This document shows, one piece after another, positions 11,654 to 47,469 of a stretch of 64,000 nucleotides of DNA. Every line of letters begins with the position of its first letter. The first letter of the stretch is position 1. This stretch comes from Candidatus Omnitrophota bacterium (GTDB lineage: Bacteria > Omnitrophota > Gorgyraeia > Zapsychrales > JANLHA01). Where the stretch lies: the NCBI GenBank assembly GCA_040753435.1, contig JBFMEN010000062.1, positions 6,726 through 70,725 on the forward strand. Reading direction: 5' to 3'. The position numbers and the translations under genes were made by a program. The notes beneath the pieces were generated by a model. It did not search any database, was not told where the DNA came from, and worked only from the letters and a program-made list of their open reading frames with translations.

Positions 11654-13142
11654 AACGGATCCTCCTGAACATGACCCAGTGGTTGCTGACAAACATCGGG
11701 GACCACATCCCGCCCAGTAGTTCAAGATTCTGGTCGCCGCTGTAAGGGTTGTAAAGATAATAAAGCGTTCCCGGATCGACGATAATCTCCCTGACATTTG
11801 AAGTAAAAATAAAGTCGGGAAAGGTCTTCCCGTAATTCATGTTCGTCAGGCGCGGAATCGCGTAGCCCGGCTCAAAGGCGTTCGTCCGCACGGTTGCGCC
11901 ATTATCAATGACTTCATGTTTAAATACCGCGTTTTTAGCCATCCAGCGCTGTAGATTCATTGTGTCGTACTGGTAAGTTTCATGGTAATTCACCGCGCTT
12001 CCGCCGATAACAGTATTCAGCAGAAGGCCGGTGATTGCAAGAATAATGAAAAGTGAAACAGGAATGGTTTTTAACCGCGGGGCAAGAATCAGCGTGATGA
12101 TCAACGCGAAGAAAAGCGCGAGCGGGGTCACGTAGTGCCCCCATGAATTCCACGGCAGGATAATTATCGCGTAACCGAAATACGCAAAAAACGCCAGGAG
12201 CCGGCCGAACAATAATCCCGGATGGGAGGGCTGCTTTGCCGAGAAAGGGAACGCGATCAGCGTCAGCGCAATCCAGGGAGAATGATTTACCAAAACTTTA
12301 TTCAGCCACACCCGGAGATTAAAATTGATCCTCGCGAAATCAGTCAGTCTGTAATCTCCCGAGTAGGTGAGATCTTTTGAGATGCCGAATTTCATAATAA
12401 GAGCGTAAACAAGCGAAAGCGCAAGGATCAAGGTTCCGAGCAGGAAGACGTTTTTAAACTTTTTGAAACCTGCCAGCGCGGCAAAAACGATCATACTGGC
12501 GCCCAGGGCGATTCCGGCGGCAACAAAGGTTTCTTTGGACAGGAACGAGAGCAGCAGGAAGGCGGACGCACAAATGATTGTCGATGTTTTCAGACCTGTG
12601 CGGGATGTCTCAAACACCGGCGCTAGTGATCGATAGAACAGCAGGAATGCCAGGCCCGAGAACAGTGAGCCAAGGATTTCTACTGTCGACAAGAAAAAAA
12701 ACGCGTCATAGAATTTATAAAAGGAAAGGGCAATCGCGATAAAAAAAGGAGCGGCATATTTTTGCCGTGAAATAACGGCCGCCAGACAGCCCCAGACGCC
12801 CAGTGTCAGTATGACTTCAAACCAGCGGAAAATCAGAAAGGCCTTGGGGCTGCTGTGAAATAACGTGTAGAAAACGGCTGCGTGCGCGTTGTAAACAGGG
12901 AAAAAACGTCCTGTCTTAAGCAGGCCCTGGATTCCGTTGACCATTTGCTGCCAGATGGTTTCGGTGGACATGATGAAGGCGTGGTCATCCATGAGTCCCC
13001 AGGCCCAAACCTTGCTGATTAATGAAGAAAGGACCAGGAACAAGGGGACGAGAGCGGGGAGCCACCAGATATTCGCGAGGGAAATATCAGGCTGTTCTTG
13101 ACGACTTTTGCCTGAGAACCAGTGTTTGATGATATTGCTCAT
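11643..13142 (-). CDS. Polytopic membrane protein, putative GT-C-fold glycosyltransferase (ArnT/PMT-like)
   Basis: 499 aa, >10 predicted TM helices, acidic motif (GLMDDHAF) in first loop as in GT-C enzymes; stop overlaps start of the GT2 gene by 11 nt (translational coupling), mirroring ArnT/ArnC or GtrC/GtrB pairing. Family assignment is by architecture only. Confidence 0.65.
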   Translation of the reverse strand: MSNIIKHWFSGKSRQEQPDISLANIWWLPALVPLFLVLSSLISKVWAWGLMDDHAFIMSTETIWQQMVNGIQGLLKTGRFFPVYNAHAAVFYTLFHSSPKAFLIFRWFEVILTLGVWGCLAAVISRQKYAAPFFIAIALSFYKFYDAFFFLSTVEILGSLFSGLAFLLFYRSLAPVFETSRTGLKTSTIICASAFLLLSFLSKETFVAAGIALGASMIVFAALAGFKKFKNVFLLGTLILALSLVYALIMKFGISKDLTYSGDYRLTDFARINFNLRVWLNKVLVNHSPWIALTLIAFPFSAKQPSHPGLLFGRLLAFFAYFGYAIIILPWNSWGHYVTPLALFFALIITLILAPRLKTIPVSLFIILAITGLLLNTVIGGSAVNYHETYQYDTMNLQRWMAKNAVFKHEVIDNGATVRTNAFEPGYAIPRLTNMNYGKTFPDFIFTSNVREIIVDPGTLYYLYNPYSGDQNLELLGGMWSPMFVSNHWVMFRRIRYAN

Positions 13143-16122: not shown

Positions 16123-18276
16123 TTAACCCTGCGGTTCCGGCAGTCCGCCCGGCTGGTTAAATAACATAAGATGCACTGCGTAGTTCATGGCCCCGTCTTG
16201 ATGCACGTTCTGATTTATAGAGACCAAATCTTTGATTGAAAAAAATCCGTGCGTGCGGTTAAGGGTGATGAGAGGCGTTCCTTTTCCGGAAATGATGACG
16301 CGGTTTCCTTTCAGCGCGATTTCGGGCTTTTCATTATAAAGAAGAACCGGACACAGGTCTTCGACAGCGGGAAGCCAGGTTTTCCCGTCGGAATAGTCCA
16401 CTGGAACAACGTGGCGCAGGCGCGGGTTTAAGGGGTTCAGAATCATCTTGAGCCCGGGGCTGATGATGATTTCATTATCCTTTCCGTTGTCGAAAAAACT
16501 TTCCGCGTGGAGGATCAGAAAGTAATTAAACGCCGGCATGGCCATGGGCAGAATAAATCCTGAAGCGATCGAAACCGCCGAGCCGATTATGAGCAGCATG
16601 GCCATCAGCATTTCGATGTTCAGGGTTGCAATCCCGAAGCCAAGCAGGAAACCTGCGGTACTAACGACAAAGGTGAAAAAATCACTGACCCCTTCCACAA
16701 GGTTGCTGTACCGCGAAAGACCGGTTTTGACAGCCTGTTCGCCGGTGATGACCTCGGCCGTCGCCAGTTCCTTCCAGTAAAGTTCCCCGTAAATGGAAAC
16801 CGCGTTGTCCATGAGCCACCATAACAGGAAGAAAATAAGGTACTGCATCGGCGTCAAACGGGGAAAAAATCTCAGCAGGGGAAGATGAAGAAACGTTTTT
16901 TCCGGGATCAGCAGGACAAAAAGAAAAACCATGATAATGTTGAGGACCGCGAAGTACCGGAAAAACCGGATGAGATTATTGTTGGCATCGTAATTCTGGA
17001 GGCGTTTTTGCCACAGGCTTCCGGAATCCTTTTGGCTGATCCGGGTATCCGCCCGCCGGTAAAAAACGACATCACGGTTCACTTCTTCCGCGATCTTCAG
17101 CCGGATGAGAGGAAGGACGTAGCGCTCCAGGACATAGGTGATGAAATAAAAAATACTGATGACAACGAAACCGGCGATCGTGATCTGCCCGGCGTAGGCG
17201 ACGATCGCGACAAAGAACACGCCCAGCAGCATCTGGCTGAAATAGGCGTAGAATAGCCAGAAACCTTCGCCGGTGCGGTAGAGAGGGCTGAAGTTAAGCG
17301 CGCGGAACCAGTACTTCACCCCGGAAGTGATGCTCAGGCGTTCCGTGACATACAAGGCGTAATAAGGCCCCTGGAAGGACAGCCCGGAATCGCCAAGCGT
17401 GCGGATCTTTCTCCAGACCCCGGCTTTTTTCAAGTCTGATTTAAATTGTGAACGCTCTTCCGAGGTTATGTGTTCCTGATTAAAGCTCGGAAGGGAAAGG
17501 CCGGTTTTGTAGGAAAGGGTCGTGTGGAACTGGTCCTGATAATGTTTGCCGGAAGAGTCCTTGGTGAAGATAAAAACAATCCTTTCCACCTCCAGGCCGA
17601 ATTCTTTGAAGACTTTGTAATAAATGAAACGCTCCGGCAGCCGCAGGGAAGGGCTCGTGGGATGTTTGATAAGGATCACGTATAATGTGTCACCCAATTT
17701 CAGCAGTTCCGCCATGGCATCGGCCTTGGGCCGTCCGTTTTTTAAACTGAATGAATGGAACAGGTAGAGAGGGGAAGAGTACTCCCCCTTGTCGTGTTCG
17801 GAAATATAGGCCTGCAAGACAGGGTTGATATCGATGATTTTTGAAATATCTTCGTGCTGGGAATCTGCCGGCCGGACGCGGGTAAAATGGCTGTATTCGC
17901 GTTGAAGTTTCTTGGAAAAATCAGGTATGGCCAGGTTTTTAAAGCCGTCGGTTTTGCGGCTTTGGCGCCATTTCAGAATAACGGCGAGAATGACCGCCGT
18001 GAGAGCCAGACCGGCGATGATGGAGGCAATCCCGCCGAGTTTGAGGAAATCCTGGCTGTTTTCAGAGGAAATAATGTTAAGAAGGCTTGAATTGCCGGAA
18101 AAAAAGGAAAAGAAATTTTCGATGATATTGTCGAACATAAATGTTTTCTTGCCCGCTAAAAAGTGTTTTCCGCTTTCGGGGAGGCCTATTATAACAGAAA
18201 AACCGGCCGGGGGAAACAAAGCCAGGCGAAAGCGCCGCGTGTTTTTGTCCGGAAAAATGCGGATCAGACCTGACAT
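16123..18276 (-). CDS. Large polytopic membrane protein, function unknown
   Basis: 717-aa ORF (alternative start ATG 18138 gives 671 aa); one N-terminal TM, ~230-aa loop, ~8 TM helices, ~110-aa C-terminal soluble domain; no family recognised. Confidence 0.6.
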   Translation of the reverse strand: MSGLIRIFPDKNTRRFRLALFPPAGFSVIIGLPESGKHFLAGKKTFMFDNIIENFFSFFSGNSSLLNIISSENSQDFLKLGGIASIIAGLALTAVILAVILKWRQSRKTDGFKNLAIPDFSKKLQREYSHFTRVRPADSQHEDISKIIDINPVLQAYISEHDKGEYSSPLYLFHSFSLKNGRPKADAMAELLKLGDTLYVILIKHPTSPSLRLPERFIYYKVFKEFGLEVERIVFIFTKDSSGKHYQDQFHTTLSYKTGLSLPSFNQEHITSEERSQFKSDLKKAGVWRKIRTLGDSGLSFQGPYYALYVTERLSITSGVKYWFRALNFSPLYRTGEGFWLFYAYFSQMLLGVFFVAIVAYAGQITIAGFVVISIFYFITYVLERYVLPLIRLKIAEEVNRDVVFYRRADTRISQKDSGSLWQKRLQNYDANNNLIRFFRYFAVLNIIMVFLFVLLIPEKTFLHLPLLRFFPRLTPMQYLIFFLLWWLMDNAVSIYGELYWKELATAEVITGEQAVKTGLSRYSNLVEGVSDFFTFVVSTAGFLLGFGIATLNIEMLMAMLLIIGSAVSIASGFILPMAMPAFNYFLILHAESFFDNGKDNEIIISPGLKMILNPLNPRLRHVVPVDYSDGKTWLPAVEDLCPVLLYNEKPEIALKGNRVIISGKGTPLITLNRTHGFFSIKDLVSINQNVHQDGAMNYAVHLMLFNQPGGLPEPQG

Positions 18277-18433
18277 GGACAGGTCTGATTCCTTTTTTTC
18301 CTGTTTTCATTTTCGTTTTTCGCTGGTATTGTAATGTTAATCATTTTAAAAGACACGCTGTCCGCGGGTGATGGCAGGTACGCTGGAGACGAATCGCCTC
18401 GATCCCGCGCAAATCTAAAAGGAGGGGATTATT

Positions 18434-18991
18434 ATGTGGATTGTCCTTGGTATCGCCGCAATTATTTTTATTTCCGCAGTCTCGATGTACAACTCGCTCA
18501 TCGGTAAGCGCAATCAGGTGCAGAATATTTTCGCCGGTATCGATGCTGTTCTCAAAAAACGTTACGACCTTGTGCCCAACCTTGTGGCCGCCGTCAAGAA
18601 TTACATGCAGCATGAGGCCGGAGTTCTGACCGGGATCACCGGGCTCCGTGCCAAAGCGGTTTCCGGCGGACTTTCCGACAATGAAAAGGTCGAGCTGGAC
18701 AATAAACTGACCAAAGCCATCGGCGGCATTATGGTTGCGGTCGAAAATTATCCGGACCTTAAGGCCAGCGAAAATTTTCTTCAGCTTCAGCGCTCGCTGA
18801 ACGAGATCGAGGAACAGCTTTCTGCCGCCCGCCGCGCCTACAACGCCGCGGTCACTGATTACAATAACGCCGTCGAAATGTTTCCCACCAATATTTTTGC
18901 CTCCGGGATGAACTTCAAACTCAAGCAGGTGTTTGAGATCGCCGAACAGGAGCGCCAGAATGTGGATGTGGCCGGGCTTTTTAAATCGTAG
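18434..18991 (+). CDS. lemA: LemA family protein
   Basis: 185 aa; N-terminal TM then ..YNSLIGKRNQVQNIFAGIDAVLKKRYDLVPNLV.. and ..YNNAVEMFPTNIFASGMNFK.. are LemA family blocks. Confidence 0.85.
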   Translation: MWIVLGIAAIIFISAVSMYNSLIGKRNQVQNIFAGIDAVLKKRYDLVPNLVAAVKNYMQHEAGVLTGITGLRAKAVSGGLSDNEKVELDNKLTKAIGGIMVAVENYPDLKASENFLQLQRSLNEIEEQLSAARRAYNAAVTDYNNAVEMFPTNIFASGMNFKLKQVFEIAEQERQNVDVAGLFKS

Positions 18992-19004
18992 CAGGGGATG
19001 ATCA

Positions 19005-19973
19005 ATGAAAACCCGCGAAGATTTGAAAAGTTTTTTTGATGTTGTCCTGTCGCCAGGCCTCAAGGAACTGGAAAAGAAACGCTTAAAAGTTTTGAACTCG
19101 GTTATTCTGGTTGAGGCGGGGGTATTGGCCGTCACGTTGCTTGTCGCCGGGCTTGTTTACAATTCCGGCGGAGGCGAGCCGCTGCTCTCTGTTCTCTTCA
19201 TCGGGGTACTAGTCATGGCCGGTTTGTTCGCTGTGCTCACGCACAGTTTTCGTTCTCCGTTTAAAGAAACTGTGATCAGGCCTCTGGTCCGTTTTTTCGA
19301 TGAAAGCCTGAGTTATACCCCGGATGGTTGTATTTCCTGTGACCTTTACACCTGTTCGAAATTGTTCCTGCATCATGTCGATGAATACCGCGGCGACGAC
19401 CTGGTCGAGGGTATGATCGGAAAGACCCGGGTCAAGTTCTCTGAACTTCATACGCAGTACAAGGTCGAGACGAGGGATAGTAAAGGCCGCAGACAGACCC
19501 AATGGCATACGATCTTTAAAGGGCTTTTTTTCATTGCCGACTTTAACAAGAATTTCAGCGGCCGGACCGTGGTCCTTCCGGATCAGGCCGAAAGGTGTCT
19601 CGGCGGGTTCGGAAAATTCCTGCAGTCAAAAAATGTGTCGCGGGATCCTTTGGTCAGTATGGACGACCCCGGGTTTGAAAAGGAATTTGTCGTTTACGGA
19701 ACCGATCAGATAGAGGCGCGGTACATTTTGACATCGAGTCTGATGAGCCGCGTTATGAATTTCCGGCGCAAAACCGGAAGGAATCTGTACCTGTCGTTTA
19801 TCGATTCGGCGATTTTTATCGCGATCCCGTACGCGAAAAATTTGTTTGAACCCAATATCTTCCGGACCCTGCTGGACTTTAAACCGGTCGAAGAATATTT
19901 TAATGATTTGAATACGGCATTGAGCATCGTCGAGGAACTGAACCTGAATACGCGGATCTGGAGCAAAGTATAA
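19005..19973 (+). CDS. LemA-associated membrane protein (DUF3137-like), hypothetical
   Basis: 322 aa, two N-terminal TM helices followed by soluble domain; immediately downstream of lemA; family call is from memory of LemA neighbourhoods, not verified. Confidence 0.55.
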   Translation: MKTREDLKSFFDVVLSPGLKELEKKRLKVLNSVILVEAGVLAVTLLVAGLVYNSGGGEPLLSVLFIGVLVMAGLFAVLTHSFRSPFKETVIRPLVRFFDESLSYTPDGCISCDLYTCSKLFLHHVDEYRGDDLVEGMIGKTRVKFSELHTQYKVETRDSKGRRQTQWHTIFKGLFFIADFNKNFSGRTVVLPDQAERCLGGFGKFLQSKNVSRDPLVSMDDPGFEKEFVVYGTDQIEARYILTSSLMSRVMNFRRKTGRNLYLSFIDSAIFIAIPYAKNLFEPNIFRTLLDFKPVEEYFNDLNTALSIVEELNLNTRIWSKV

Positions 19974-20060: not shown

Positions 20061-23000
20061 TTACTGATTTAATAAAACCGGCAGGTCGTAAACAGGCTGG
20101 ATTTGAATGATGACCGGGGTCAGCCCCTGGATGGGCAATTCGGGATTAACGCGAAGTTCATCCGGAATGTTTAACCGGATGCCTTGCCCCCGGCGACCGA
20201 GTTTGAGCCGGGAGGGATTAAGATCAATACCGCCCGGCGGTTGATCTGCTCCTGTCCTGGCGGAATCAACGGATTGTTTGATCTGCTTGATTTTTTTTGT
20301 CAGTAATTCATCATGTCCTCCGAACATCGCATATTGCAAAGCGCGCAGCAAGTAGTGCGGATGATAAGCATCTTTTCCTCCGGAAAATGTTTTTCCTTTT
20401 AATGCGATGGATCTCGCCTTTCCCTGCAAATGCAGCCGCGCCGTCTTTCCGTCAGCCGTTATGACAAGCCATTCTCCGTCGAACGACAATTTCAGAATCT
20501 CGCCCTGGACATAGTATTCGCCCAGCTCATGAAATATGGAAATGCTGTTATCGGATAAATCCCGGGCCAGAGCGATCAGCTTTTTTTCAAAAGAAGCGAT
20601 GCCGAGGAAATCCGCAACCGGATCGGTAAACAGCCTGAGCTCCGGCGGTGAATTTTCCAGTAATCGCAGGAATGCGTCGATGATCTGCTGATTATGCGGG
20701 TTGACACTCTCATTTTTTAATCCGGTTAAAGCAGTCTCAAGATGCCCGCGGCCGTTCTCGACCGTTATCAGATCCCGCACGCCGAGCAAATGGTTTTCCC
20801 TGTCGTAAAGATGGAGTTCATCTTCCCCGCCATCATCATTGCTGACAATTTCTCCGTGAGCGTTTTTGCCGATCAAACCGGCGAGGACGGGAATCGTTTC
20901 ATTAAGAAAAGGTTCTGTGACCCGATCCTCCTTCTGCCCAAATGAGAAATACCGGACGCTTCCGTCACCGTTATGGTTAACACCCAAAAGCGCCCGTAAT
21001 TGCCGCTGTTGTTCGGGCGTTAACGTTATAAAGATCGTAAGGTCTTCCCTGAAGGCGATCTTTTCAATTGTTTCCGCCCGGACGATGTGTTTGCCTTTGA
21101 GCTCGCTGTCTTCTCCGGTCGCTTCCTTAATCCCTTTCAGCATTGTCGATCTGGGATCTTCTTCGGATTCGGAAAAACCCGTGGCTTGCGTTCCGCGATT
21201 TGCTGCGGTCACGATGCTGAAGGAATCTGTGATCGTTATTGACGCCTTTTGAAGGAGGTTCAGGACCCGGGTAGCATAATCCCCGCAGTAGCAGGAGTCG
21301 ATCATAATAACGAGGTCCGAAAGAACGCCTCCGGAACCAGAGGCCCGTTCGATGAGATCATCTGCGAGTTCCTTGTAGCTGATTCCGTCGGGATGCGAGA
21401 GGTTCTCTGATTTTTCTTTGCCTTCCTGCCCGCCGCGCAGCCAGAAATGATTTGGACCGCCGTGGCCGTTAAGGTAAATAAAGGTCTTTCCTGGAGAAGT
21501 CCGGATCTCTTTTCTCAGCGCGTCCTTTCCGTAATAAGCCAAACCGTCGTAGGCCTTGACGCGCTTATCGAAAGAGTCTTCGCCGGGTCTGGCGCCGATG
21601 AACTGGCTGATGAAATTTTTAATATATTCTGTTGAAAAGATAAGGCTGTCGTCATTGGTGCCGATAATAACGGAGTAGCCCCGATCAAGAAGTGTTTTTT
21701 CAAGAAAGTCTTCGCGGATTTTGAGGATGAACGGGATGAGCGCGGAGATCTTTTCATCATCCAGGCCCAGGCCGTGTGTTTTTAAAACAGTGTCAACCGC
21801 GCGCGCGACGGAGAATTGGTTCACGGAATGAAGGTCTTTTGTCATTTTACTGAATTCTTTATTTGAGTAGATCAGCAGATAATCTTGCAGCGAAATGACC
21901 CCCTTGCCCAGTTCAGCCCAGCGATAGGAGAGATTAAGAAAAAGCCTTTTTTGCGGATGTTCATTCGATAAATTGAACCCGACGGCCCATATCGCCCATG
22001 TTGCGATGCCCTTGTCCTCCTCATAAAGTTTGAGGATCGCAGGAAGGAGGTGATTTTTTAAGATACCTTCCGGATCTGCCCCGATGCTTTGACTGACTGT
22101 TCCGATCGCGTCCACTGCCTGGTTGAAGACTTCGTCATTCTCATCTTTTAATCCGTAATTGAAGATGACAGGAATAATTTCATTTTTAAGGAGCGGGAGG
22201 TCGGTCAATCCCATCTTGGCCAGCGAAGAGATGGCCCAGTCGGCGGATATGCCGTCTTTGTTCCTGATTCCGTTCAGAATTGAGTTGATGATCGCAAGTC
22301 TTGCCGGAGATTCTTCAGGAACTTCTTCCCGGATGTTTTCCAGAACCATGGCGGCATGAAGCCGGAACCATTCGGAAAAGAAAAGGGAGTGGACCAGGGT
22401 GGGAATAATCTTTTCTTCAAGAACCGGATCATCTTTCAGCTGCAGGGCAGCATTTTTCAGCAGGGCAAATGACCTGATTCCAAGGTTCTCATCCAGCAGA
22501 AAAGGCAGGAGATGTTTTTTGGTGAATTCTGGTTCCTGAAGATCAATGATGGCCTGGCCGGCGCCCTTAATAATGATACCGGCGGAGATTTCTCTCCTTG
22601 CGATCAAATCCAGTACCGGTTGAATGACGCGGGTTTTGACGAAATGTTTCTTGCCGGCGGTATCCGCGTCTCCGTCCATTTTTGCGATGATGGTGAAGAT
22701 AGTGTTTTCTATTGCCTGGTCCGGATTCCTGTCCTTCAGCCTGGAGATCAGGAAATCAACTGCTTCCGGTCCCATCGCCGTCAGTTCCTTCCACTGCCGG
22801 CCGGCATAATAAAAAATTTTCTTGTCTTCCGGCAGTAGAGGCTCCCAGCCGATTTTTTTCAACACATCAGCGCCGTGCAGGCGGACCGACGGTTCGGGAT
22901 TGGTCAGATTGCCCCGGAATTTATTAATAATCATATCTTTGACGGGATTCGGCTGTGAAAATGATCGCGCAACCAGGATCAGTTCCCCGGACACGTCGCC

Positions 23001-25124
23001 AGGCGCGGCCAGCAGCAGGCCGGTGATTTGTTTTTTCAAAGGATTTGAATCCGGCACTGATGCGGCGATTCTGGCGAGCGCCCGGAATGGAGAATTTTCA
23101 CCGGTCATTGTTGATTCGGCCGCTTCGTCAATCAGGAAAAGACTGATTTTTTGAATAGCCTTTTTATCACAATGGGGGGAAGATGCGATCATTCCCAGGA
23201 CAGTGTAAGGGGAAGTGTCTTCAATATATTTTTCAGATGACGCTTTTTCTATCATTAACGGGATGACTCGTTGAGTGACGTAGTCCTGATCCGGGAGCGA
23301 GGCCGAGATGACGCCGATCGTCCAGAAGAGATCCTGTTTGAACGGGAGCCCGTTGTCATTGACGGCTTTAAGCAGAAGATCCAGGGCCGCGGCTCCCGCT
23401 TCGGCCAGGGCATCCCATTTTTCATGCGCGAGCAGGTATCCGATGTAGGCCTGGCCATCGCCGGGTCTTTTCGGTTGCGCGTTGCTTTGTTCAAGGATTC
23501 CGGCGGCGATTTTGCGGATATCGTTGTTATTGACGTTTTCAAGAATTTTTAAAGCGGCCGGGATGACCATCGTCCGGATCCGCGGATCTGGTTTATCTTT
23601 TTCCGCGGTTTCCCCAACAGATACAAGATCGGGGCGGTTTTCCGCAAGCGCGATCCGGTACAGTAACTTCGCGGCCTCTTCACGGACTCTCCAGGGTTCT
23701 TTTTCATCAAGAATGGCGTCGATGAGTAAGGGAGCCGCGGCCAGCCCGGTTACGATGACTGGTTCAGCAAACGAAAGGATGTTCTGCCGGTAAAGATCGA
23801 GATGGCTTTTGACCCTTTCCCGTGCAGTAGCATTGATATTCTTTTTTTCCTCATCGGTTAACGGAGCGGCGCGCACCAGGGACTCTTCTGCCGGGAAAAA
23901 TGCCTTTTTGTCGATCTGCTCATTTGAAAGATAATCAGGATTGATCCTGACGATTAGATTCTGATCAGCGCCGGCATCAATCAATCCGGAACCGCTGTTT
24001 AACAGGAGCGCGGAGGCTAAAACGACAAGACCCCGGATCCCTTTTTTAACAATTCCGGCTGATTGTTTGTTCAAAGGTTTTCTAATGATTTTTTTGCTGA
24101 TGTCTTTCCCGAAATCCGCTCCGCCGGAAAAATATCTTTTTGGGGTTGATGTTCTGGTCGCGGGATCGTATTCCTCGCGGATGTAGTCATAAACGCCTTT
24201 TTGGAAGGCTTCGAGATAACGCCGGTAAATTTTCGACGTTGCATCCGTGTCCTCAATATTGATCCCGTTCACCAGGTTCCGGTCTGCGTAAACTTTGTTC
24301 AGGATCGCTTCCTTGAGGTTTTCCTTGAACCAGGCGGCCAGGATCAGCGCGTGATAAATCTGTCTGAGCTGGGCGAAATGAGCGCCCTGATTGACCTCGC
24401 GTTCGATCTCGGGGATAATGATTTCTTTTAACACTTCCCGGCGGAATTCCGTTTCTTCAGGATTATCATGGGTTTCATTGGCGGAACCTTGGTAGTCGCT
24501 TTCCAGCATGACTTTGAGCCGGCTTTCCTGGATGCAGGCGATGTCCTGGTCTTCATAAATAACTGCGGATTCTGGAACGATCCAGACTTTGTTAAAGGCG
24601 TCTACAGGGATATCTGTTGTCCCGTAACGGGCCAGCGCTTTTTCCCGGACGGTTTTCCAGAATTTTTTTCCGGGCGTTTCTTCCGGATACATAAGTGAGG
24701 CGGTCAGTTGTTTTAAAATATAATCCTGTGCAAGAAGGTCGCGGCCCATTTCGGTTTGGCCGAATTTATCAGGGATAATGCGATCCTTTTCCATGGGGGA
24801 GAGGTTGACCCAGAGGTCTTCTTCCGGCACGGTTAAAGACGCCATAAAATACTGGATGATTTTTTTTGATTCCGCTTCCAGCGCGATTGCATCAGGTGCC
24901 TGGTCACCGGTATCGATGATAAAGTCAAAATGGAACGGGTTTTCCGGATCGATGATAACGCCCTTTAAAAGTGGCGGGGTAAAAATTTTGCTTGGGGCGA
25001 CCATGGCGCCGGGTACAGGAAGGTTGAGCAGTTCCTGGGTATAGGCGGGAGTAAGCGCCGAATTCACAGAAAAAGACGCCAGAATCAGGCAGAGAACACT
25101 GTTTTTGATGAACTTGTTTATCAT
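20061..25124 (-). CDS. Giant secreted multidomain protein: signal peptide + novel N-terminal domain (shared with 27324..29849) + HEAT/ARM-like repeats + clan-CD (caspase/clostripain-like) cysteine peptidase domain + shared C-terminal ~60-aa motif
   Basis: Start ATG 25124 chosen (AGAAGAGA RBS, good signal peptide MINKFIKNSVLCLILASFSVNSA); alternative ATG 25172. Peptidase signature FIYLNGHGGPNHF ... ~50 aa ... LVIMIDSCYCGDY (hydrophobic strand-His-Gly and hydrophobic strand-Asp-x-Cys) around 21280-21470. Confidence 0.8.
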   Translation of the reverse strand: MINKFIKNSVLCLILASFSVNSALTPAYTQELLNLPVPGAMVAPSKIFTPPLLKGVIIDPENPFHFDFIIDTGDQAPDAIALEAESKKIIQYFMASLTVPEEDLWVNLSPMEKDRIIPDKFGQTEMGRDLLAQDYILKQLTASLMYPEETPGKKFWKTVREKALARYGTTDIPVDAFNKVWIVPESAVIYEDQDIACIQESRLKVMLESDYQGSANETHDNPEETEFRREVLKEIIIPEIEREVNQGAHFAQLRQIYHALILAAWFKENLKEAILNKVYADRNLVNGINIEDTDATSKIYRRYLEAFQKGVYDYIREEYDPATRTSTPKRYFSGGADFGKDISKKIIRKPLNKQSAGIVKKGIRGLVVLASALLLNSGSGLIDAGADQNLIVRINPDYLSNEQIDKKAFFPAEESLVRAAPLTDEEKKNINATARERVKSHLDLYRQNILSFAEPVIVTGLAAAPLLIDAILDEKEPWRVREEAAKLLYRIALAENRPDLVSVGETAEKDKPDPRIRTMVIPAALKILENVNNNDIRKIAAGILEQSNAQPKRPGDGQAYIGYLLAHEKWDALAEAGAAALDLLLKAVNDNGLPFKQDLFWTIGVISASLPDQDYVTQRVIPLMIEKASSEKYIEDTSPYTVLGMIASSPHCDKKAIQKISLFLIDEAAESTMTGENSPFRALARIAASVPDSNPLKKQITGLLLAAPGDVSGELILVARSFSQPNPVKDMIINKFRGNLTNPEPSVRLHGADVLKKIGWEPLLPEDKKIFYYAGRQWKELTAMGPEAVDFLISRLKDRNPDQAIENTIFTIIAKMDGDADTAGKKHFVKTRVIQPVLDLIARREISAGIIIKGAGQAIIDLQEPEFTKKHLLPFLLDENLGIRSFALLKNAALQLKDDPVLEEKIIPTLVHSLFFSEWFRLHAAMVLENIREEVPEESPARLAIINSILNGIRNKDGISADWAISSLAKMGLTDLPLLKNEIIPVIFNYGLKDENDEVFNQAVDAIGTVSQSIGADPEGILKNHLLPAILKLYEEDKGIATWAIWAVGFNLSNEHPQKRLFLNLSYRWAELGKGVISLQDYLLIYSNKEFSKMTKDLHSVNQFSVARAVDTVLKTHGLGLDDEKISALIPFILKIREDFLEKTLLDRGYSVIIGTNDDSLIFSTEYIKNFISQFIGARPGEDSFDKRVKAYDGLAYYGKDALRKEIRTSPGKTFIYLNGHGGPNHFWLRGGQEGKEKSENLSHPDGISYKELADDLIERASGSGGVLSDLVIMIDSCYCGDYATRVLNLLQKASITITDSFSIVTAANRGTQATGFSESEEDPRSTMLKGIKEATGEDSELKGKHIVRAETIEKIAFREDLTIFITLTPEQQRQLRALLGVNHNGDGSVRYFSFGQKEDRVTEPFLNETIPVLAGLIGKNAHGEIVSNDDGGEDELHLYDRENHLLGVRDLITVENGRGHLETALTGLKNESVNPHNQQIIDAFLRLLENSPPELRLFTDPVADFLGIASFEKKLIALARDLSDNSISIFHELGEYYVQGEILKLSFDGEWLVITADGKTARLHLQGKARSIALKGKTFSGGKDAYHPHYLLRALQYAMFGGHDELLTKKIKQIKQSVDSARTGADQPPGGIDLNPSRLKLGRRGQGIRLNIPDELRVNPELPIQGLTPVIIQIQPVYDLPVLLNQ

Positions 25125-25389
25125 TCTCTTCTCAGGTAAAAAAGGTAATATAAGGAATTTAAAGCTAAGCATAGAACATTTTTGAGCAAAAAACCAGTGC
25201 TTCCCCGGGTTATTTTATTCAAAAGTGGACACTTTTTGACGAATTCCGGCCGGATATTCTTCCGATATTTCAGGACCTGCCGTGCTTGCAGATTAACTTG
25301 TCCCTGTTCGTTGACATCCCGGTCTGATCGGCTATAATTTCATGGGATGAGACAAACGATGGATTGATTCATAACGATGGAGGTGTGTG

Positions 25390-25848
25390 ATGAGAAAAGG
25401 TTTATTAAGTGCAGTGATGGTTTTGGCCCTGATGGTTTCTCCGGTTTTTGCGCAAGAGCCGGCAGCGCCGCAGGAAGGCACAGTTCAGCCGGGGGCCGGT
25501 TACGGCTATGGCATGAAAAATCGTGAAATGATGGGGCGCGGCAAGTTCCTGGAGAAGAAGATGATGATGGGAAAGATGTGTGCCGCGGGCGACATCATGA
25601 AAATCATGATGAAGACGACCGTGACTGTCACGCCCGATGGCGGCGTTATTGTCTTGCGGGGAAACAGTCTGGCGAAGTATGACAAAAATCTGAATCTCGT
25701 CAAAGAGGTTCAATTGAAAGACATGACCGAAGAGATTCAGCAGAAGATGCAAAAGATGATGAAGGAATGCCCGGTGATGCAGCAGAGAATGGGTGATGAT
25801 GATATGATGATGGAACCCGAAGAGATGGAGCCTGAGCCGGCGGAATAA
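25390..25848 (+). CDS. Methionine-rich secreted protein (signal peptide; ~28 Met in 152 aa)
   Basis: GGAGGTG RBS then ATG 25390; N-terminal signal peptide LLSAVMVLALMVSPVFAQEP; Met-rich blocks KKMMMGKM, MKIMMK, MQKMMKECPVMQQRMGDDDMMMEPEEME. Confidence 0.7.
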   Translation: MRKGLLSAVMVLALMVSPVFAQEPAAPQEGTVQPGAGYGYGMKNREMMGRGKFLEKKMMMGKMCAAGDIMKIMMKTTVTVTPDGGVIVLRGNSLAKYDKNLNLVKEVQLKDMTEEIQQKMQKMMKECPVMQQRMGDDDMMMEPEEMEPEPAE

Positions 25849-25861
25849 TTTTTTTTGTGAG

Positions 25862-25894
25862 TAGAGACGTCCCGGCGGGACGTCTCTACTCGAG
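25862..25894. terminator. Perfect 16-bp-arm palindromic stem-loop after Met-rich gene
   Basis: gagtagagacgtcccg / cgggacgtctctactc inverted repeat, preceded by T8 run; orientation of termination ambiguous. Confidence 0.5.
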
Positions 25895-26135
25895 GTGGTG
25901 TGAACATATCGGGCGGGTTTTCCCGCCCTTTTTTATCGCGATTGCAGGAAAGGGAACTCACTTCCCTGTAATAAAAAATAATTAGTGACAGGCACGCTTT
26001 AATTTTTTGAAAGGAAAAGTGAAGAGCGAAGAGCGAGGGGTGACCAGGAGCGAATTAAAAAAGAACGAAAATGCTTATTAAATTTGTTTAGGGAAAAATA
26101 AGGGAGCAAAACAATTTCAAAAAGGAGAGAAGGCG

Positions 26136-27278
26136 ATGAGCACGAAACCGGCGAAAATGAAAGACCGTAAATTATTGGCCGGTCATCCGCCGGCACAAAC
26201 CCTTCTTGCTTCCCCGTTAGACAGTTCTTACTCACGATTATTAACTGATATCACCACTGCCTTTCGTACCGGACTTCTTCAGGCGCAGCAACTGCTCGAA
26301 TACGCGCGGCTTGAGACCCACTGGCTGGTCGGGCGGCACATCGTTGTTTACGCCGCGTTTCCGCACAGCGCTTACCCGCTCACTACAGAATTTTACATTA
26401 AACTGAGCAATGATCTGCGTGAGCAGGAAGGGATCGAGATGAGCAAGGACATGCTTCAGCGTTCGGCACAGTTTTTCCGCAATTATGAAATCTTCCCTGA
26501 CCGAACACCGCTGACATGGACGCATTATCTCATCCTGATGCGGGTGACCGATGAAAAAATACGTCTTCAACTGGAGCGCAAGGCGATCAAACAAGGATTT
26601 ACCGTCAAGGAATTAATGGCTGAGTTGGACCGGTTAAAACTGGAGAGCTCTGTCATTCAGATCAACTCCGCCGGCAAACTGGTCTTTGAGCGCGGCAAAC
26701 CTTACACGTACCGGATTTGCGAGAACGAGGATGTGGAAGGGAAAAAGATCCTGGCCATCGATTGCGGTTTCGGCATGTGCCGGGATATCCCGAAGGGAAC
26801 CAGGCAACAGTTAAGTTCCGGGCAGATAGTCTGCACGCAAAAGAGGGCGGACGGCGAATACAGTCTGACCGCGAATAACAAGCGCCGCGGACAGAATTAC
26901 ACCTATCCTGCCAGAGTCCTTAAAATCATCGACGGCGACACGCTTGATCTTCGGATCGACCTTGGATTTTATTTGCGGCTGATCTGTGAGCGCGTCCGCC
27001 TGCGCGGGATCGACGCGCCGGAAATGACCGGGAAGGGCGGGCCCGGAGCCAAAGATTTTCTTGTCAAAACTCTTTCGAAATGTCCCGTTATTGTGGTCCG
27101 CACCACCAAAGCATCCGGGCAGGAGGCTCCCGACGCCAAAGAAAAATTCGGCCGCTGGCTGGTTGATGTGTTTTTTCTGCCGGAGAATGATGATGCGACG
27201 GAGATTGCGGAAAAAGGGATGTATCTGAATCAGTTGATGCTGGATGAAGGCCATGCGGAGATTTACAGGATCAAGTAG
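26136..27278 (+). CDS. Fusion protein: DUF1016(YhcG)-N-terminal-like domain + C-terminal staphylococcal-nuclease (SNase/thermonuclease)-like domain
   Basis: C-terminal ..ARVLKIIDGDTLDLRIDLGF...ERVRLRGIDAPEM.. is the SNase GDT / RLxGIDAPE signature; N-terminal region (..LLEYARLETHWLVGRHIV..) resembles YhcG-type N-domain; no signal peptide. Confidence 0.7.
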   Translation: MSTKPAKMKDRKLLAGHPPAQTLLASPLDSSYSRLLTDITTAFRTGLLQAQQLLEYARLETHWLVGRHIVVYAAFPHSAYPLTTEFYIKLSNDLREQEGIEMSKDMLQRSAQFFRNYEIFPDRTPLTWTHYLILMRVTDEKIRLQLERKAIKQGFTVKELMAELDRLKLESSVIQINSAGKLVFERGKPYTYRICENEDVEGKKILAIDCGFGMCRDIPKGTRQQLSSGQIVCTQKRADGEYSLTANNKRRGQNYTYPARVLKIIDGDTLDLRIDLGFYLRLICERVRLRGIDAPEMTGKGGPGAKDFLVKTLSKCPVIVVRTTKASGQEAPDAKEKFGRWLVDVFFLPENDDATEIAEKGMYLNQLMLDEGHAEIYRIK

Positions 27279-27323
27279 AGGCAAAATTTTGCGTCTCTAC
27301 CAAGGATAAATCTTAGATATCTA

Positions 27324-29849
27324 TCAATCCAACCGCGCCGCCAGATCCTGTTCCTTTGTTTCAATCGCCTTTTGATCAAATCCTAAAAGGGGAAGGATAT
27401 TCTGGACAGGAGTTACATTGATGATAACCGGCGCCAAACCGTCGATATCCATGTCCGCCAGACCGTCCATCGCCCGGGGATTGAACCGGATACCGGTCTT
27501 TTCGCCATGCATGGTGAAATTGATTTCATTCATATCGATACCGCCGTTGATTTTAGTATCTTCATTTTTGACTAACATGGCTGAATCAATCCCCGCTTTT
27601 TCAGCCAGGGCTAGCATAGTGTTTCTGAGCACTTCGCGCGATTGCGCTTCATCATCGCTCACTCCCCTGACAGGATAGACATTCCCTGCGGTATCGTAGA
27701 GGGTCATTCCAAGGTCCCGGTAAACTTTTGCGGTTGCTTCTCCCCAGTTCTTTTTAAATAATTGCTCTATTCTGTTAATAGCAGCGTGAACTAAAATGAG
27801 ATTTTTTTTGCCAAAATCAGGATTAGGAGAACCGGCCCGGAAATTTTCAGTTAGAATTTTTAATTCATGCATCGCGTCCGCAACCTCTTTAAAAGGAGGA
27901 AAGAAGGAAGGGTTCATGGTATTGGGGTCGATTCGGACCATAAAATCGCCGTAATCTTTAATTAAATTTTCCATTATCCGTTTATGCCGGGGAGTATTGA
28001 CTATTTTTCTCAGAAGTGCTTCAGGATGATCGAAAACTTTTTTTGCGATTTCTTCCCTGACCCTGCGGACTGGTAAATTTTCACGGATGTTGATGGTGTT
28101 GCCGGCGACATCAATTTTTGATATGGACAATACGTTTTTGTCGAGAACGATTTTCTTAATCTTGTCCATAAATTTTTGCATTTTTTCATTATCTTTCCAG
28201 GCTTCTTCAAACTCATATCCGTAAACTTCTCCGATTACGGCGTCATTCAGTTTAATGAATATGGGCCTGCGGGCTTGGTATAAGTGTCTTGCTTTGATTT
28301 GATCAAGAGCCAATCGTAATATTCTTGGGAAATACAGACCTTCGACAAGATAGTCCAGCGTCAGCATTGCCTCGTCGGTTGCAGCCGGCATTCTTCGGGA
28401 AGCCGACACCTTGATACGGTTTTCGGCAACTGTAAAGTTATTGATGCTGTCGACATCAGCGAGAGCGCCTGTTACCGATTCCTTGAGCTTTTTCATATCG
28501 GATTCGAAGTATAACGCGGCATGGTAATTCCAGGGACGTATTGCCATGATTGGTAAACCATTGAGATTCAGGATAACATTCTGGTATTTTGCCAAAGACA
28601 CCTGCGTAAGGAGTACAGGAAGTTTTTCTTGGATAAATTTGCTTAATGTCAGCATCTCTTCGCCGATAGGCGCAACCGGAATTCCGTTTTTTTCAGGAAC
28701 GGTGCGCATTTCGACCTCGAAGGCTGAGCCCTGAATCAATCCCAGGCTGCCGGGATTGCTGACATTCCTGGTGATCATGGCTTCATCCCTGAACCCGCCG
28801 GAAAAATATTGTTTTGGGATGACGGCTTGGGAAAGCGCATCGTAGTCTTCTTTAATGAAATTGAAAACTCCTTTTTCATAGGCCTTTATGTATTGATCGT
28901 AAATTTCATTAATAACATTCACCGGCCGGTCATTCGCCAGTTCAATGCCGCCTGTCTTTTTTTGATCCACATAAATTTTTGAAAGCACGGAATCTTTCAC
29001 GGCTTGCTTGTACCATTTGGCCAGGATCAGGGAATAGTAGATCTGGCGCAGGGGCGCGAAGGTTTCACCGTTATTGATTTCTTTTTCGATCTCGGGCAGG
29101 ATGAGTTCTTTGATGACGTCCTGGGCAAGGTCTTCAACGCTTTCGGGATTATTCAGTGGAGAATCCCGGCCGCCTTGTGTCTTTTGATAGTCCCTGTCCG
29201 TCATGACTTTAAGATGCGCGTCCACAATGAAGACCGTTTGATCATGCTCGTAGAGGGTGGCGCTTTCCGGCAAAATCCATACCTTGTTGAATAAATCGGT
29301 CCTGACATCTGTCGTTCCAAACTTTTCGTACGCCTGTTGATGAATGCGGTTCCAGAATTTCGCCCCCAGTTCACTGTCGGGATTGGTCAGCGTGGCTGAT
29401 AATTGTTTCAGAATATAGTCCTGGGCAAGCAAGTCCCGTCCGAGTTCAGTTCTGCCAAGTTCCTCAGGAATAATACGGTCGGCTTCATAAGGAGAAAGGT
29501 TGACCCAAAGGTCATTCTGGGGGATCGTCATTGAAGCCAGAAAGTATCTGACCAGCCGCTCACTTTCCTGTCTAACTTCGTCGGCGTTAAACCCGCTGTT
29601 ACCGCTGTCGACGATGAAATTAAAATCCAGGAGATCTTCGGAATTGACGGTTAGACCTTTAAGCAAAACCGGAATAAATGCAGGGCTGACATTTACCATG
29701 GTCCCTGGAACAGGCAGGTTGAGCGCTCCAACCGATTGGGCCAGCGCCAGTGAAGGGTTAAGAGCGGTCCAGAAAAACAGGACGTTCATGATTAAAGACA
29801 ATGATTTGCAAAACGAACGCTTGTGTTGCTTTCGAAATGGCCGGAACAT
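27324..29849 (-). CDS. Secreted paralogue of the giant protein: signal peptide + shared N-terminal domain + divergent central region + shared C-terminal motif
   Basis: Start ATG 29849 (AGGAGA RBS; MFRPFRKQHKRSFCKSLSLIMNVLFFWTALNPSLALA signal peptide). Residues ~45-400 align block-by-block with the giant protein (LNLPVPG, DLWVNLSP, GRDLLAQDYILKQL, FNKVWI.PESA, LRQIY, YFSGG). Confidence 0.8.
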   Translation of the reverse strand: MFRPFRKQHKRSFCKSLSLIMNVLFFWTALNPSLALAQSVGALNLPVPGTMVNVSPAFIPVLLKGLTVNSEDLLDFNFIVDSGNSGFNADEVRQESERLVRYFLASMTIPQNDLWVNLSPYEADRIIPEELGRTELGRDLLAQDYILKQLSATLTNPDSELGAKFWNRIHQQAYEKFGTTDVRTDLFNKVWILPESATLYEHDQTVFIVDAHLKVMTDRDYQKTQGGRDSPLNNPESVEDLAQDVIKELILPEIEKEINNGETFAPLRQIYYSLILAKWYKQAVKDSVLSKIYVDQKKTGGIELANDRPVNVINEIYDQYIKAYEKGVFNFIKEDYDALSQAVIPKQYFSGGFRDEAMITRNVSNPGSLGLIQGSAFEVEMRTVPEKNGIPVAPIGEEMLTLSKFIQEKLPVLLTQVSLAKYQNVILNLNGLPIMAIRPWNYHAALYFESDMKKLKESVTGALADVDSINNFTVAENRIKVSASRRMPAATDEAMLTLDYLVEGLYFPRILRLALDQIKARHLYQARRPIFIKLNDAVIGEVYGYEFEEAWKDNEKMQKFMDKIKKIVLDKNVLSISKIDVAGNTINIRENLPVRRVREEIAKKVFDHPEALLRKIVNTPRHKRIMENLIKDYGDFMVRIDPNTMNPSFFPPFKEVADAMHELKILTENFRAGSPNPDFGKKNLILVHAAINRIEQLFKKNWGEATAKVYRDLGMTLYDTAGNVYPVRGVSDDEAQSREVLRNTMLALAEKAGIDSAMLVKNEDTKINGGIDMNEINFTMHGEKTGIRFNPRAMDGLADMDIDGLAPVIINVTPVQNILPLLGFDQKAIETKEQDLAARLD

Positions 29850-30181
29850 TTTGTCTCCTGGTTGATAAAACTGCTTCCTTTGAATGACGGATTCTCTGAA
29901 TCTGAAGTTTCCAAAAACTGGAGCGATTAATTTAAGAATTAGAGAAAAGTGGATTAACTTTATCATATAAAATTATACAAAACAATGGGACAAGCCTGGA
30001 TAAACCAGGACACGAAAGCAGAAACCACCACTATTTTAAAAAAATTTTTAAAAAAGGAGAAAAATGTCAGTAAATATTCCCTCCGCCTATGGTTTTTAAT
30101 AGTAATTTGTAGTTCAATATAGATAATTCACATAAATCAACAATTGCAACCGGTTAAGGCCGGAACAGAGGGGATAGTTCA

Positions 30182-36983: not shown

Positions 36984-37991
36984 ATGCCCGAATTCTTTAT
37001 CGGTTTGTTCGTATTTTTCTTCGGAGCATGTATCGGAAGTTTTTTAAATGTCTGTATTGTTAGAATGCCAAAAGAGTTGTCTGTTGTTACTCCCCGTTCC
37101 CATTGCTTTTCCTGTCAGCAATTGATCCCCTGGTATGATAATATCCCCCTGGTTTCGTATTTCATTCTTAAAGGAAAATGCCGTAAATGCGGAGCACCCT
37201 TTTCATTTCGTTATTTATTGATCGAGTGGCTCACTGCCTTCACGTTTTTGGGTTTTTATCTGTATTTCGGGCTGACAACGCAGATGGCGGCGTATTTAGT
37301 GATGGTTTCGGCATTTATTGTCGCGACCTTTGTTGACTTTGAGTTGAGAATCATTCCCGATGAAATCAGCGTAGGAGGGATGTTCGCCGGTTTATTGCTG
37401 AGCGTCTTTTTCGTTGACCTTCATTCAGCGTTTTTCCATCAATTGGCTATGGGACGGATCATTATGTGGATTATCGTTGGAGTTTGTTTGGGAGTCCATC
37501 TTATCGAGTTTTTGGTATTGAAGCGGGACTTTGACAGGGAGGACCTGTTTTTGTTCAGCGTCATTATCGGGATGGTGGCTGCCGAAGCGCTGATTACTTT
37601 ACTGATGAGCGGTCCTTTAGCAGGTTCAGATTTCTGGCTGATCCGGCATTTAAAAAGTCTTGACGCGTCGTTGATCGGGCTGTTGCTCGGAGGAGGCGTG
37701 ATTTATGTCATGGGCCTTTTGGGCGATTTTATTTTTAGAAAAGAATCCATGGGCGGCGGCGATGTTAAACTGATGGCATTGATCGGGGCTTTCCTGGGAT
37801 GGAAACTTGCACTGGTGGCTTTTTTTGTGGCGCCGTTTTTCGGAGCGGTTTACGGGATCATCGAGAAGATCAGAACAAAAGACAGCGCTATTGCCTATGG
37901 TCCGTTTATCGTGATGGGCGCGTTGATCAGCCTGTTCTTTGGTGATGTCATCATTGCCTGGGTGCTGAGTCAGTATGGCCTTACCGTTTGA
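36984..37991 (+). CDS. pilD: Prepilin (type IV leader) peptidase / N-methyltransferase, A24 family
   Basis: N-terminal zinc-binding CFSCQQLIPWYDNIPLVSYFILKGKCRKCG motif and multi-TM peptidase A24 body. Confidence 0.85.
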   Translation: MPEFFIGLFVFFFGACIGSFLNVCIVRMPKELSVVTPRSHCFSCQQLIPWYDNIPLVSYFILKGKCRKCGAPFSFRYLLIEWLTAFTFLGFYLYFGLTTQMAAYLVMVSAFIVATFVDFELRIIPDEISVGGMFAGLLLSVFFVDLHSAFFHQLAMGRIIMWIIVGVCLGVHLIEFLVLKRDFDREDLFLFSVIIGMVAAEALITLLMSGPLAGSDFWLIRHLKSLDASLIGLLLGGGVIYVMGLLGDFIFRKESMGGGDVKLMALIGAFLGWKLALVAFFVAPFFGAVYGIIEKIRTKDSAIAYGPFIVMGALISLFFGDVIIAWVLSQYGLTV

Positions 37992-44250: not shown

Positions 44251-44390
44251 TTCTTTGGATTGCTCCCAAGTGACAGCCCAAAACGGTATTCTTTATATTA
44301 GTATCTATACTAGATTTCTTTAATATTTCCTGTAAAATAGCTAATGCTTTTATTTCCTCCAGCATTTCAACAATACTGACGTTTAAATTT

Positions 44391-47427: not shown

Positions 47428-47469
47428 AATTGATTATTGTTTGGGATTTGGGTTTTTGGAATTGTGATT

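Follow-up and report, generated by a model that had tools for sequence, protein, structure and literature searches.

What is to be made of two genes whose products are clearly alike at both ends and share nothing in between? The question is raised by a stretch of 64,000 nucleotides, called the window here, of contig JBFMEN010000062.1 (positions 6,726 to 70,725 of the forward strand; assembly GCA_040753435.1) from a Candidatus Omnitrophota bacterium, which carries two such genes, A and B, on its minus strand (Table 1). Omnitrophota are uncultured, mostly ultra-small and thought to live as epibionts, parasites or predators; attention has so far gone to their poorly annotated giant open reading frames (ORFs). 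A first-pass annotation of the window, made by reading the sequence, had described two long minus-strand proteins with signal peptides, a shared N-terminal domain, a shared C-terminal motif and unrelated central regions, and each of these statements was borne out. Both ORFs are present (residues are numbered below as in the full 1703-aa and 880-aa ORFs), and both begin with a basic n-region that leads into a hydrophobic core and, just ahead of LNLPVPG, a site of small residues. BLASTP aligns residues 7-351 of A with residues 40-391 of B at 45% identity over 354 amino acids (aa; E=3e-98), with every identity block quoted in that annotation in place, and residues 1632-1700 of A with residues 790-861 of B at 36% identity over 73 aa (E=1e-5); outside these two modules no alignment of A with B rises above chance. 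On these alignments A and B are confirmed as paralogues with conserved ends and unrelated centres. A tblastn search found no third family copy in the 64-kb window. From M40 onwards B is identical to the NCBI protein AB1650_08065 (P0121), deposited as 'hypothetical protein [Candidatus Omnitrophota bacterium]'.

Do the shared ends belong to anything already described? Neither module has a match at E<=0.1 in Pfam or NCBIfam, a profile of 42 N-modules has zero matches at E<=10 among all PDB sequences, and a Foldseek search of the PDB with an AlphaFold model of the A N-module gave nothing at E<=1e-3. The Omnitrophota papers searched, those on giant ORFs among them, do not describe these N- and C-modules. 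The family is new, in that neither module has been described before or has a known homologue or fold, in agreement with the earlier view that the N-terminal domain belongs to no described family. A characterised family for this domain and an A/B similarity at the level of chance were both looked for, and neither was found. Chance resemblance, an assembly artefact or the mere adjacency of unrelated genes is effectively ruled out by the E value of 3e-98 and by thousands of independent relatives in many assemblies that have this architecture.

Fixed ends and exchanged centres in a large Omnitrophota family

How large is this family, and how far does it reach? With the A N-module as query, 1104 database matches were obtained, the best 120 at 48-63% identity; the named ones are nearly all from Candidatus Omnitrophica/Omnitrophota metagenome-assembled genomes (MAGs), many are labelled 'partial', and several belong to a single MAG. 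With B as query there were 3625 matches, nearly all bearing the same phylum label; the matches listed in both searches are apparently confined to proteins up to about 1.75 times the query length (550 aa for the 315-aa query, 1512 aa for the 880-aa one). Frequent 'partial' members in public MAGs would be expected if assemblies break in the repeated conserved modules. A short subfamily, suggested by the A N-module matches of 339-550 aa, was considered and rejected, because within that length range the matches are mostly fragments. Run against 1.84 billion cluster representatives, the N-module profile matched 8406 proteins at E<=1e-3 and 6840 at E<=1e-30, and in 150 listed proteins of 420-4969 aa the match begins within the first ~50 residues; the 4969-aa protein is the longest complete member found. 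Species-representative genomes yielded at least 588 confirmed stretches. The best 80 of these at least 588 loci all lie in Omnitrophota MAGs, some of them deposited as 'uncultured Planctomycetales', and eight of the 80 come from a single MAG. The family is, in short, very large and restricted to the Omnitrophota.

All ORFs taken from these 80 loci have the N-module 33-86 codons from their start; the complete ones measure 404-3361 aa, and 14 exceed 3660 aa and run off the 10-kb flank. Family genes often stand in head-to-tail tandem arrays (loci L014 9804/9878, L069 9731/9764, L057, L036, L030, L042, L016 and L028), with a few tens to a few hundred bases from the end of one C-module to the start of the next member, and several of the upstream members are longer than 3100 aa and run off the locus. 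Both modules are found together in 59 stop-to-stop segments of the loci; segments with a C-module alone are cut off by the start of the locus or represent the latter part of a split gene. In a few members the N-module and the C-module lie on two overlapping ORFs in different frames (L078 9878..12852, L063 9878..13592, L029 7931..17211), through frameshifts that could be pseudogenes, sequencing errors or programmed shifts; L029 also holds a masked run.

The order of parts is the same throughout: signal peptide, N-module of ~310 aa, variable centre and C-module of ~57 aa. In 164 gene-called members the median distance from the start to the LNLPxPG motif at the head of the N-module is 39 residues; a hydrophobic 10-mer (Kyte-Doolittle >=2.0) occurs in 96% of them, and the median n-region contains three Lys/Arg and zero Asp/Glu, with a small-residue site of the type '…YA/QS' (slash, predicted cleavage) ahead of the motif; these signal peptides were read heuristically and not by SignalP. 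At the other end, about 90% of complete members finish in a 'GGIDLN…PVIINITPV…LPLLLG' module, as do members of 3701, 4553 and 4969 aa, and in 154 of 185 family proteins a local hidden Markov model (HMM) located a single C-module, right at the end of the chain and followed by a tail of 0-58 aa (median 5). A and B conform, each with an N-module behind a Sec-type signal peptide and a single C-module at the extreme C-terminus. Polar residues of the N-module are very highly conserved (WVNLSPxExDRIxP…TEMGRDLLxxDYxLKQ), and its last ~30 residues (…GVFNFIKEDYD…IPKQYFSGG; 367-391 in B, ~328-351 in A) are among the most conserved of the family. Among 258 proteins with both modules, median identity is 58% for the N-module and 37% for the C-module, and the distances of the two correlate (Mantel r=0.70 versus a maximum of 0.07 in 500 permutations). 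In the members read, the C-module comes in at least three sequence types, which apparently follow the N-module subfamily.

The centres behave quite differently. Their length ranges from ~100 to >4400 aa, and in the 258 relatives they are unrelated in ~99% of pairs even at 80-90% N-module identity: any similarity of centres is found in 1.1% of the 1572 pairs in that range. Part of the pair data had been pre-clustered at 50% identity, which loses orthologues with similar centres and cannot create pairs with near-identical modules and unrelated centres. Centres are evidently replaced rapidly. The polymorphic-family layout proposed for A and B extends to the family as a whole; the surface or effector role attached to that layout is an interpretation, taken up below. 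What the centres contain is equally mixed. Among the precomputed Pfam domains of 120 relatives of B are HEAT and ankyrin repeats; glycosyltransferases and aldose 1-epimerase; NDK, adenylate kinase, NUDIX, dCMP deaminase, PRTase and UDPGP; radical SAM with a B12-binding domain, Glu/Leu dehydrogenase, ROK, PfkB, HAD and methyltransferases; and receiver, GGDEF and HATPase_c domains. About half of the 120 have no Pfam domain at all, and three members of 3100-3400 aa have one marginal match between them. In P0210 (AB1650_09900, from the MAG that also holds the window) residues ~393-425, directly past the N-module, make up a complete twin-arginine-like signal (TRRKFLKIMGISGLAAAFSKLVPW), and the protein looks as if a whole gene for a cargo exported by twin-arginine translocation (Tat) had been captured between the two modules.

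Module folds, probable N–C docking and what the constant ends may do

Why should two modules be kept at opposite ends of proteins that are otherwise so freely rebuilt? Modelled alone by AlphaFold, the A N-module (predicted local distance difference test, pLDDT, 70; predicted template modelling score, pTM, 0.65) is mixed alpha/beta and combines long helices with two beta-hairpins. The full-length model of B, built with 54 relatives that hold both modules, reaches pLDDT 85-97 over most of the N-module and is mostly below 50 in the centre; it adds a strand 25-35 residues past YFSGG (pLDDT ~90), and the C-module is modelled as two strands and a helix, with a last strand of 12 residues that covers 'LAPVIINVTPVQ' (pLDDT 83-95). 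The conserved ~30 residues that end in YFSGG fall below 50 in both models, and this segment, set beside the invariant Gly-Gly, is possibly a linear recognition or processing segment.

Contact between the modules is suggested by covariation. Mean-field direct coupling analysis (DCA) was run on the 258 proteins (343 N-module and 55 C-module columns; effective number of sequences, Meff, 222). Among ~78,000 pairs, N-module column 273 with C-module column 33 ranks 6th and N56 with C33 ranks 10th, and the pair N56/N269, at rank 15, closes the triangle. The top inter-module scores are 1.84 and 1.56, versus maxima of 0.92-1.39 in three shuffles of the N–C pairing; inter-module pairs below these two lie within the shuffle noise (1.0-1.4) and were left unused. 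C33 is the residue ahead of 'PVIINI' and N56 lies in the 'FxFDFI' strand, and a change between Phe and Leu at one of them is matched by the opposite change at the other (Fisher p=2e-5 with 62 sequence clusters, p=0.02 with 20). Given this covariation and the high pLDDT of a very hydrophobic 57-residue C-module, packing of the two modules on each other appears fairly probable. The AlphaFold confidence, the one compensatory Phe/Leu pair and the co-inheritance of N- and C-types together suggest that they form one constant domain, a 'clasp'.

How might such a clasp work? The proteins would first be exported, by way of the cleavable signal peptide. Once outside, the C-module, made of a strand-strand-helix unit and the long hydrophobic strand 'PVIINITPV', would pack on the beta-sheet and a helical face of the N-module, so that both ends close into a constant clasp of ~400 aa from which the cargo loops out. 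The clasp would then be the handle by which a single envelope component, either an anchor or an outer-membrane export route, holds the inserted cargo or passes it on, and the cell would display or release, on its surface or where it touches a host or prey cell, a large and fast-changing set of enzymes and binding repeats. Sec export, N–C docking, the handle function and the final location are all steps that we infer. That the constant parts give variable cargo a shared export or anchoring handle seems likely; the more specific proposal, that A and B are Sec-exported modular proteins whose N+C clasp is a common handle for exchangeable cargo, is the reading preferred here, and we hold it tentatively, at somewhat short of an even chance.

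Several observations weigh against it. Many of the cargo domains, such as ATP- or NAD-dependent enzymes and radical SAM enzymes with their Fe-S clusters, need a cytoplasm and are hard to square with Sec export to the periplasm or beyond the cell; the topology may differ among members, 41 of 154 having hydrophobic segments past the N-module, some of them strongly transmembrane (TM)-like at residues ~380-500; and there is no anchor, secretion partner or localisation datum for the family. The high pLDDT of the C-module does not prove contact with the N-module, just two inter-module DCA pairs stand above the shuffle noise, and the shuffle also removes phylogeny. The conserved polar residues of the N-module, finally, would equally fit a catalytic or ligand-binding site.

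The cytoplasmic look of the cargo leaves two alternatives in play: either the centres act in the cytoplasm of another cell, or there is a membrane-tethered subset with the centre inside. On the first, the only Omnitrophota member in cultivation has been reported to pass predator molecules into its prey (PMC13153191). In a bolder reading, the clasp would be a delivery chassis specific to the phylum, exporting the product of whatever gene is inserted into it and passing it to the surface of the cell or into hosts or prey attached to it, and it may also underlie the giants and other proteins of several thousand residues in the phylum, as well as a head-to-tail coat. We regard this as rather unlikely. 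If true, it would mean that the chassis sends out hundreds of different enzymes of the cytoplasmic kind (NDK, adenylate kinase, NUDIX, radical SAM, dehydrogenases) together with HEAT and ankyrin binders. Extended to the family at large, the second alternative would keep the centres at work in the producer's own cytoplasm, as membrane-tethered scaffolds or sensors with only the N-module outside, and would account for a cargo made up mainly of cytoplasm-type domains, including radical SAM, kinases, receiver and GGDEF, and for the strong hydrophobic helix directly past the N-module in members such as P0152, P0144 and P0138. In that general form it is a long shot: 113 of the 154 members, B among them, have no hydrophobic segment past the N-module, and A has a single weak one (~residue 449, Kyte-Doolittle 1.79); the C-module would face the opposite side of the membrane from the N-module, contradicting covariation and co-inheritance; and the internal Tat-like signal of P0210 implies a cargo that is exported. 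Cytoplasm-type enzymes behind Sec signal peptides are a real puzzle whichever reading holds.

Could the contact be made between chains rather than within one? AlphaFold and DCA cannot tell the two apart, and it is conceivable that, in the manner of donor-strand complementation, one member lends its C-terminal strand to fill out the N-module of another, so that many paralogues join into a mixed surface coat or fibre with a different centre on each subunit. Such head-to-tail assembly would agree with the small number of covarying pairs, with the many paralogues per genome, often in tandem, with the description of a cultured Omnitrophota member as a 'coated coccus' (PMC10066038), and with the unusual conservation of the modules across paralogues (the medians given above), which is what would be expected if every C-module fits many N-modules. 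We nonetheless consider it improbable: N- and C-types track each other, as the Mantel correlation demonstrates, and self-pairing fits this at least as well; no polymer has been observed; and the monomer model of B already yields confident modules. Donor-strand complemented pilins, and architectures with beta-strand complementation or domain insertion in general, are comparable in that here too a terminal hydrophobic beta-strand would complete a fold formed elsewhere, in a remote stretch of the same chain or in a separate one; they differ in showing no homology to the present family, for which the contact is deduced from pLDDT and one compensatory pair.

It might also be asked whether the constant N+C domain is an enzyme or processing device in its own right, cleaving at the Gly-Gly junctions (…YFSGG / GGIDLN…) so as to free the centre, or acting on an envelope component. 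Invariant polar residues of the N-module (N, D, E, R, K, Q, Y, T), in WVNLSP…TEMGRDLL…DYxLKQ and in E…N…F…RQ, speak for this, as do the GG found invariably at both junctions and the poorly modelled conserved stretch of 30 residues ahead of YFSGG, so like a linear recognition segment. The lack of any invariant Cys, His or Ser nucleophile and of any similarity to hydrolases in fold or sequence makes it quite improbable, however, and glycines at domain junctions are common hinges. For further study the family offers practical starting points. With its thousands of distinct members it would make the question of how Omnitrophota act on other cells a concrete and testable one, by way of two short modules that HMMs can define, a predicted cleavage site for the signal peptide and a predicted N–C contact; and minimal members of ~600 aa, such as P0134 (623 aa) and P0138 (585 aa), suit expression.

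Contents of the two centres and the genomic surroundings

The first-pass annotation had assigned HEAT repeats and a caspase-like peptidase to the centre of A. The order along this centre is a stretch of weak HEAT-like helical repeats (~residues 440-1100), a conserved His/Cys region, and then a region without assigned family. All HEAT scores are below their gathering cutoffs (HEAT_2 24.5 bits against 27.7, HEAT 22.4 against 23.5, HEAT_EZ 18.5 against 27); HEAT repeats are plausible here because they are the commonest cargo among relatives, and the assignment for A is weakly supported. So is the peptidase call. With residues ~1100-1634 as query, two homologues alone were retrieved, both unannotated; the alignment gives the common pattern NGHGGPxHxWL … IDSCY, and NGHGGPNHFWL (His1237) and IDSCYCG (Cys1294) of A are invariant across the three sequences. 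The GHG…DSC pattern is conserved, then, as would suit a clan-CD dyad; the Pfam match of Peptidase_C13 over the dyad region falls short (12.5 bits against a cutoff of 22.8, E=0.11), and a PDB sequence search with the putative peptidase region gave no match.

Table 1. Features of the window discussed in the text, grouped by gene; residue numbers are those of the full ORFs, and a slash marks a predicted signal-peptide cleavage site
Feature	Coordinates	Strand	Remarks
Gene A, family member	20061..25172	-	1703-aa ORF; likely start M17 at 25124, giving 1687 aa
A signal peptide	25038..25124	-	~residues 17-45; n-region basic, core hydrophobic, site of small residues ahead of ELLNLPVPG; family statistics agree
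A N-module	24120..25037	-	~residues 46-351, LNLPVPG … RYFSGG
A variable centre	20235..24119	-	residues 352-1646
Possible clan-CD (legumain/caspase-like) cysteine peptidase core in A	21183..21680	-	weak: Peptidase_C13 E=0.11
A C-module	20064..20234	-	residues 1647-1703, GGIDLNPSRL…GLTPVIIQIQPVYDLPVLLNQ
Met-rich gene between A and B	25387..25848	+	153 aa; Sec-type signal peptide (…SPVFA/QEP)
DUF1016_N + SNase-like fusion	26136..27278	+	DUF1016_N 46.8 bits (cutoff 32.8); SNase 20.4 bits (cutoff 21)
Gene B, family member	27324..29966	-	880-aa ORF; 841 aa from M40 at 29849
B signal peptide	29739..29849	-	residues 40-76, …SLALA/QSVGALNLPVPG
B N-module	28686..29738	-	residues 77-391 up to QYFSGG, plus confidently modelled beta-strand at 415-426
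B variable centre	27546..28685	-	~residues 428-807; helical; no family assignment
B C-module	27378..27545	-	residues 808-863, GGIDMNEINF…GLAPVIINVTPVQNILPLLGF; pLDDT 83-95
B charged variable tail past C-module	27327..27377	-	17 aa
Prepilin peptidase (A24)	36984..37991	+
Lipid A / LPS-core cluster	42958..49581	+	Kdo transferase, LpxK, lipid A acyltransferase fused to ELM1-like domain, GT4+GT9 fusion (heptosyltransferase)

What, then, of the two plus-strand genes that lie between A and B? The first is, as had been described, Met-rich and, judging by its signal peptide, secreted, with 23 Met (15%) in runs such as MMMGKM, IMMK, KMMKE and DDMMME; it belongs to no Pfam or NCBIfam family, and to call it a Met-rich periplasmic metal (Cu/Ag)-binding type of protein would be a guess from its composition. 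The second, convergent with gene B at a distance of 45 bp between the stops, had been read as a fusion of the N-terminal domain of YhcG with SNase: the former half, DUF1016_N, holds well above its cutoff, the latter comes in just under it, and the SNase-like half replaces the PD-(D/E)xK C-terminal domain that usually follows DUF1016_N. Both genes were considered as members of a system with A and B and rejected, as neither is conserved beside family members in 80 related loci, and the proposal of a four-gene functional locus falls with them. The picture of genes facing outward, back to back, has to be corrected too, since A and B are co-oriented; they look like a tandem family pair with two unrelated genes inserted between them. 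ORF clustering over the 80 loci found no conserved neighbour of family genes other than generic response regulators (12 loci) and antisense shadow ORFs, so a partner, if any, is shared and encoded elsewhere.

The surroundings in the window are ordinary chromosome, with uppS, ilvC, leuA, metK, ahcY, topA, dprA and xerC-like genes. The genes for lipid A and the lipopolysaccharide (LPS) core, together with the prepilin peptidase, mark the host as a diderm with a type IV pilus or machinery of the type II secretion system kind. The ORFs at 16123..18276 (-), 18341..19135 (-) and 11643..13142 (-), of 717, 264 and 499 aa, have no Pfam family at E<=1e-3, nor has that at 9768..10457 (+), of 229 aa, at E<=1e-5; 19005..19973 (+) encodes a DUF3137 protein.

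Comparison with known systems

Which known systems does this architecture recall? A short C-terminal module common to many otherwise unrelated proteins of one lineage, behind a signal peptide and a varied functional part, is a feature shared with proteins that carry the C-terminal domain of the type IX secretion system (T9SS), with LPXTG and PEP-CTERM proteins and with those anchored by S-layer homology (SLH) domains; unlike all of these, the Omnitrophota family couples its C-module obligatorily to an N-module of ~310 aa. In contrast to LPXTG and PEP-CTERM, moreover, the C-module has neither a TM helix nor a basic tail, its hydrophobic stretch being broken by prolines and followed by 0-58 variable or acidic residues. 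No sorting signal (LPXTG, PEP-CTERM, GlyGly-CTERM) was matched in NCBIfam or Pfam, and no domain of the T9SS Por_Secre_tail type at E<=0.1 in either; neither an N-terminal two-partner secretion (TPS) domain of the TpsA type nor an autotransporter beta-barrel translocator was found.

The resemblance to polymorphic toxins and effectors of the Rhs, CdiA and MafB type lies in the joining of constant trafficking modules to rapidly exchanged cargo, in the many paralogues per genome, often in tandem, and in a cargo exchange far faster than the divergence of the constant parts. The differences are these: the variable part of the Omnitrophota family lies in the middle, between two constant ends, instead of forming the C-terminal tip, no immunity gene is conserved alongside, there is no relation in sequence or fold, Pfam matches neither RHS nor haemagglutinin repeats in A and B, and the cargo consists mostly of repeats and housekeeping-type enzymes rather than nucleases or deaminases.

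A further comparison is with the giant proteins of the same phylum ('Archaeovorins'), which are reported to be 10,000-147,000 aa long and to have many TM helices (West-Roberts et al. 2023, bioRxiv 10.1101/2023.11.21.568195; Seymour et al. 2023, PMC10066038). Compared with these by description, A and B, at 1687 and 841 aa, are large and not giant, contrary to the earlier label, and have no convincing TM helix past the signal peptide. What the two groups have in common, besides the phylum, is an overlapping cargo (HEAT_2, HATPase_c, radical SAM, NUDIX, HAD, GGDEF) and, in the long members of the present family, a near absence of Pfam matches; the papers on giant ORFs likewise note signal peptides, N-terminal regions without identifiable domains and a similar domain repertoire (10.1101/2023.11.21.568195; PMC10066038).

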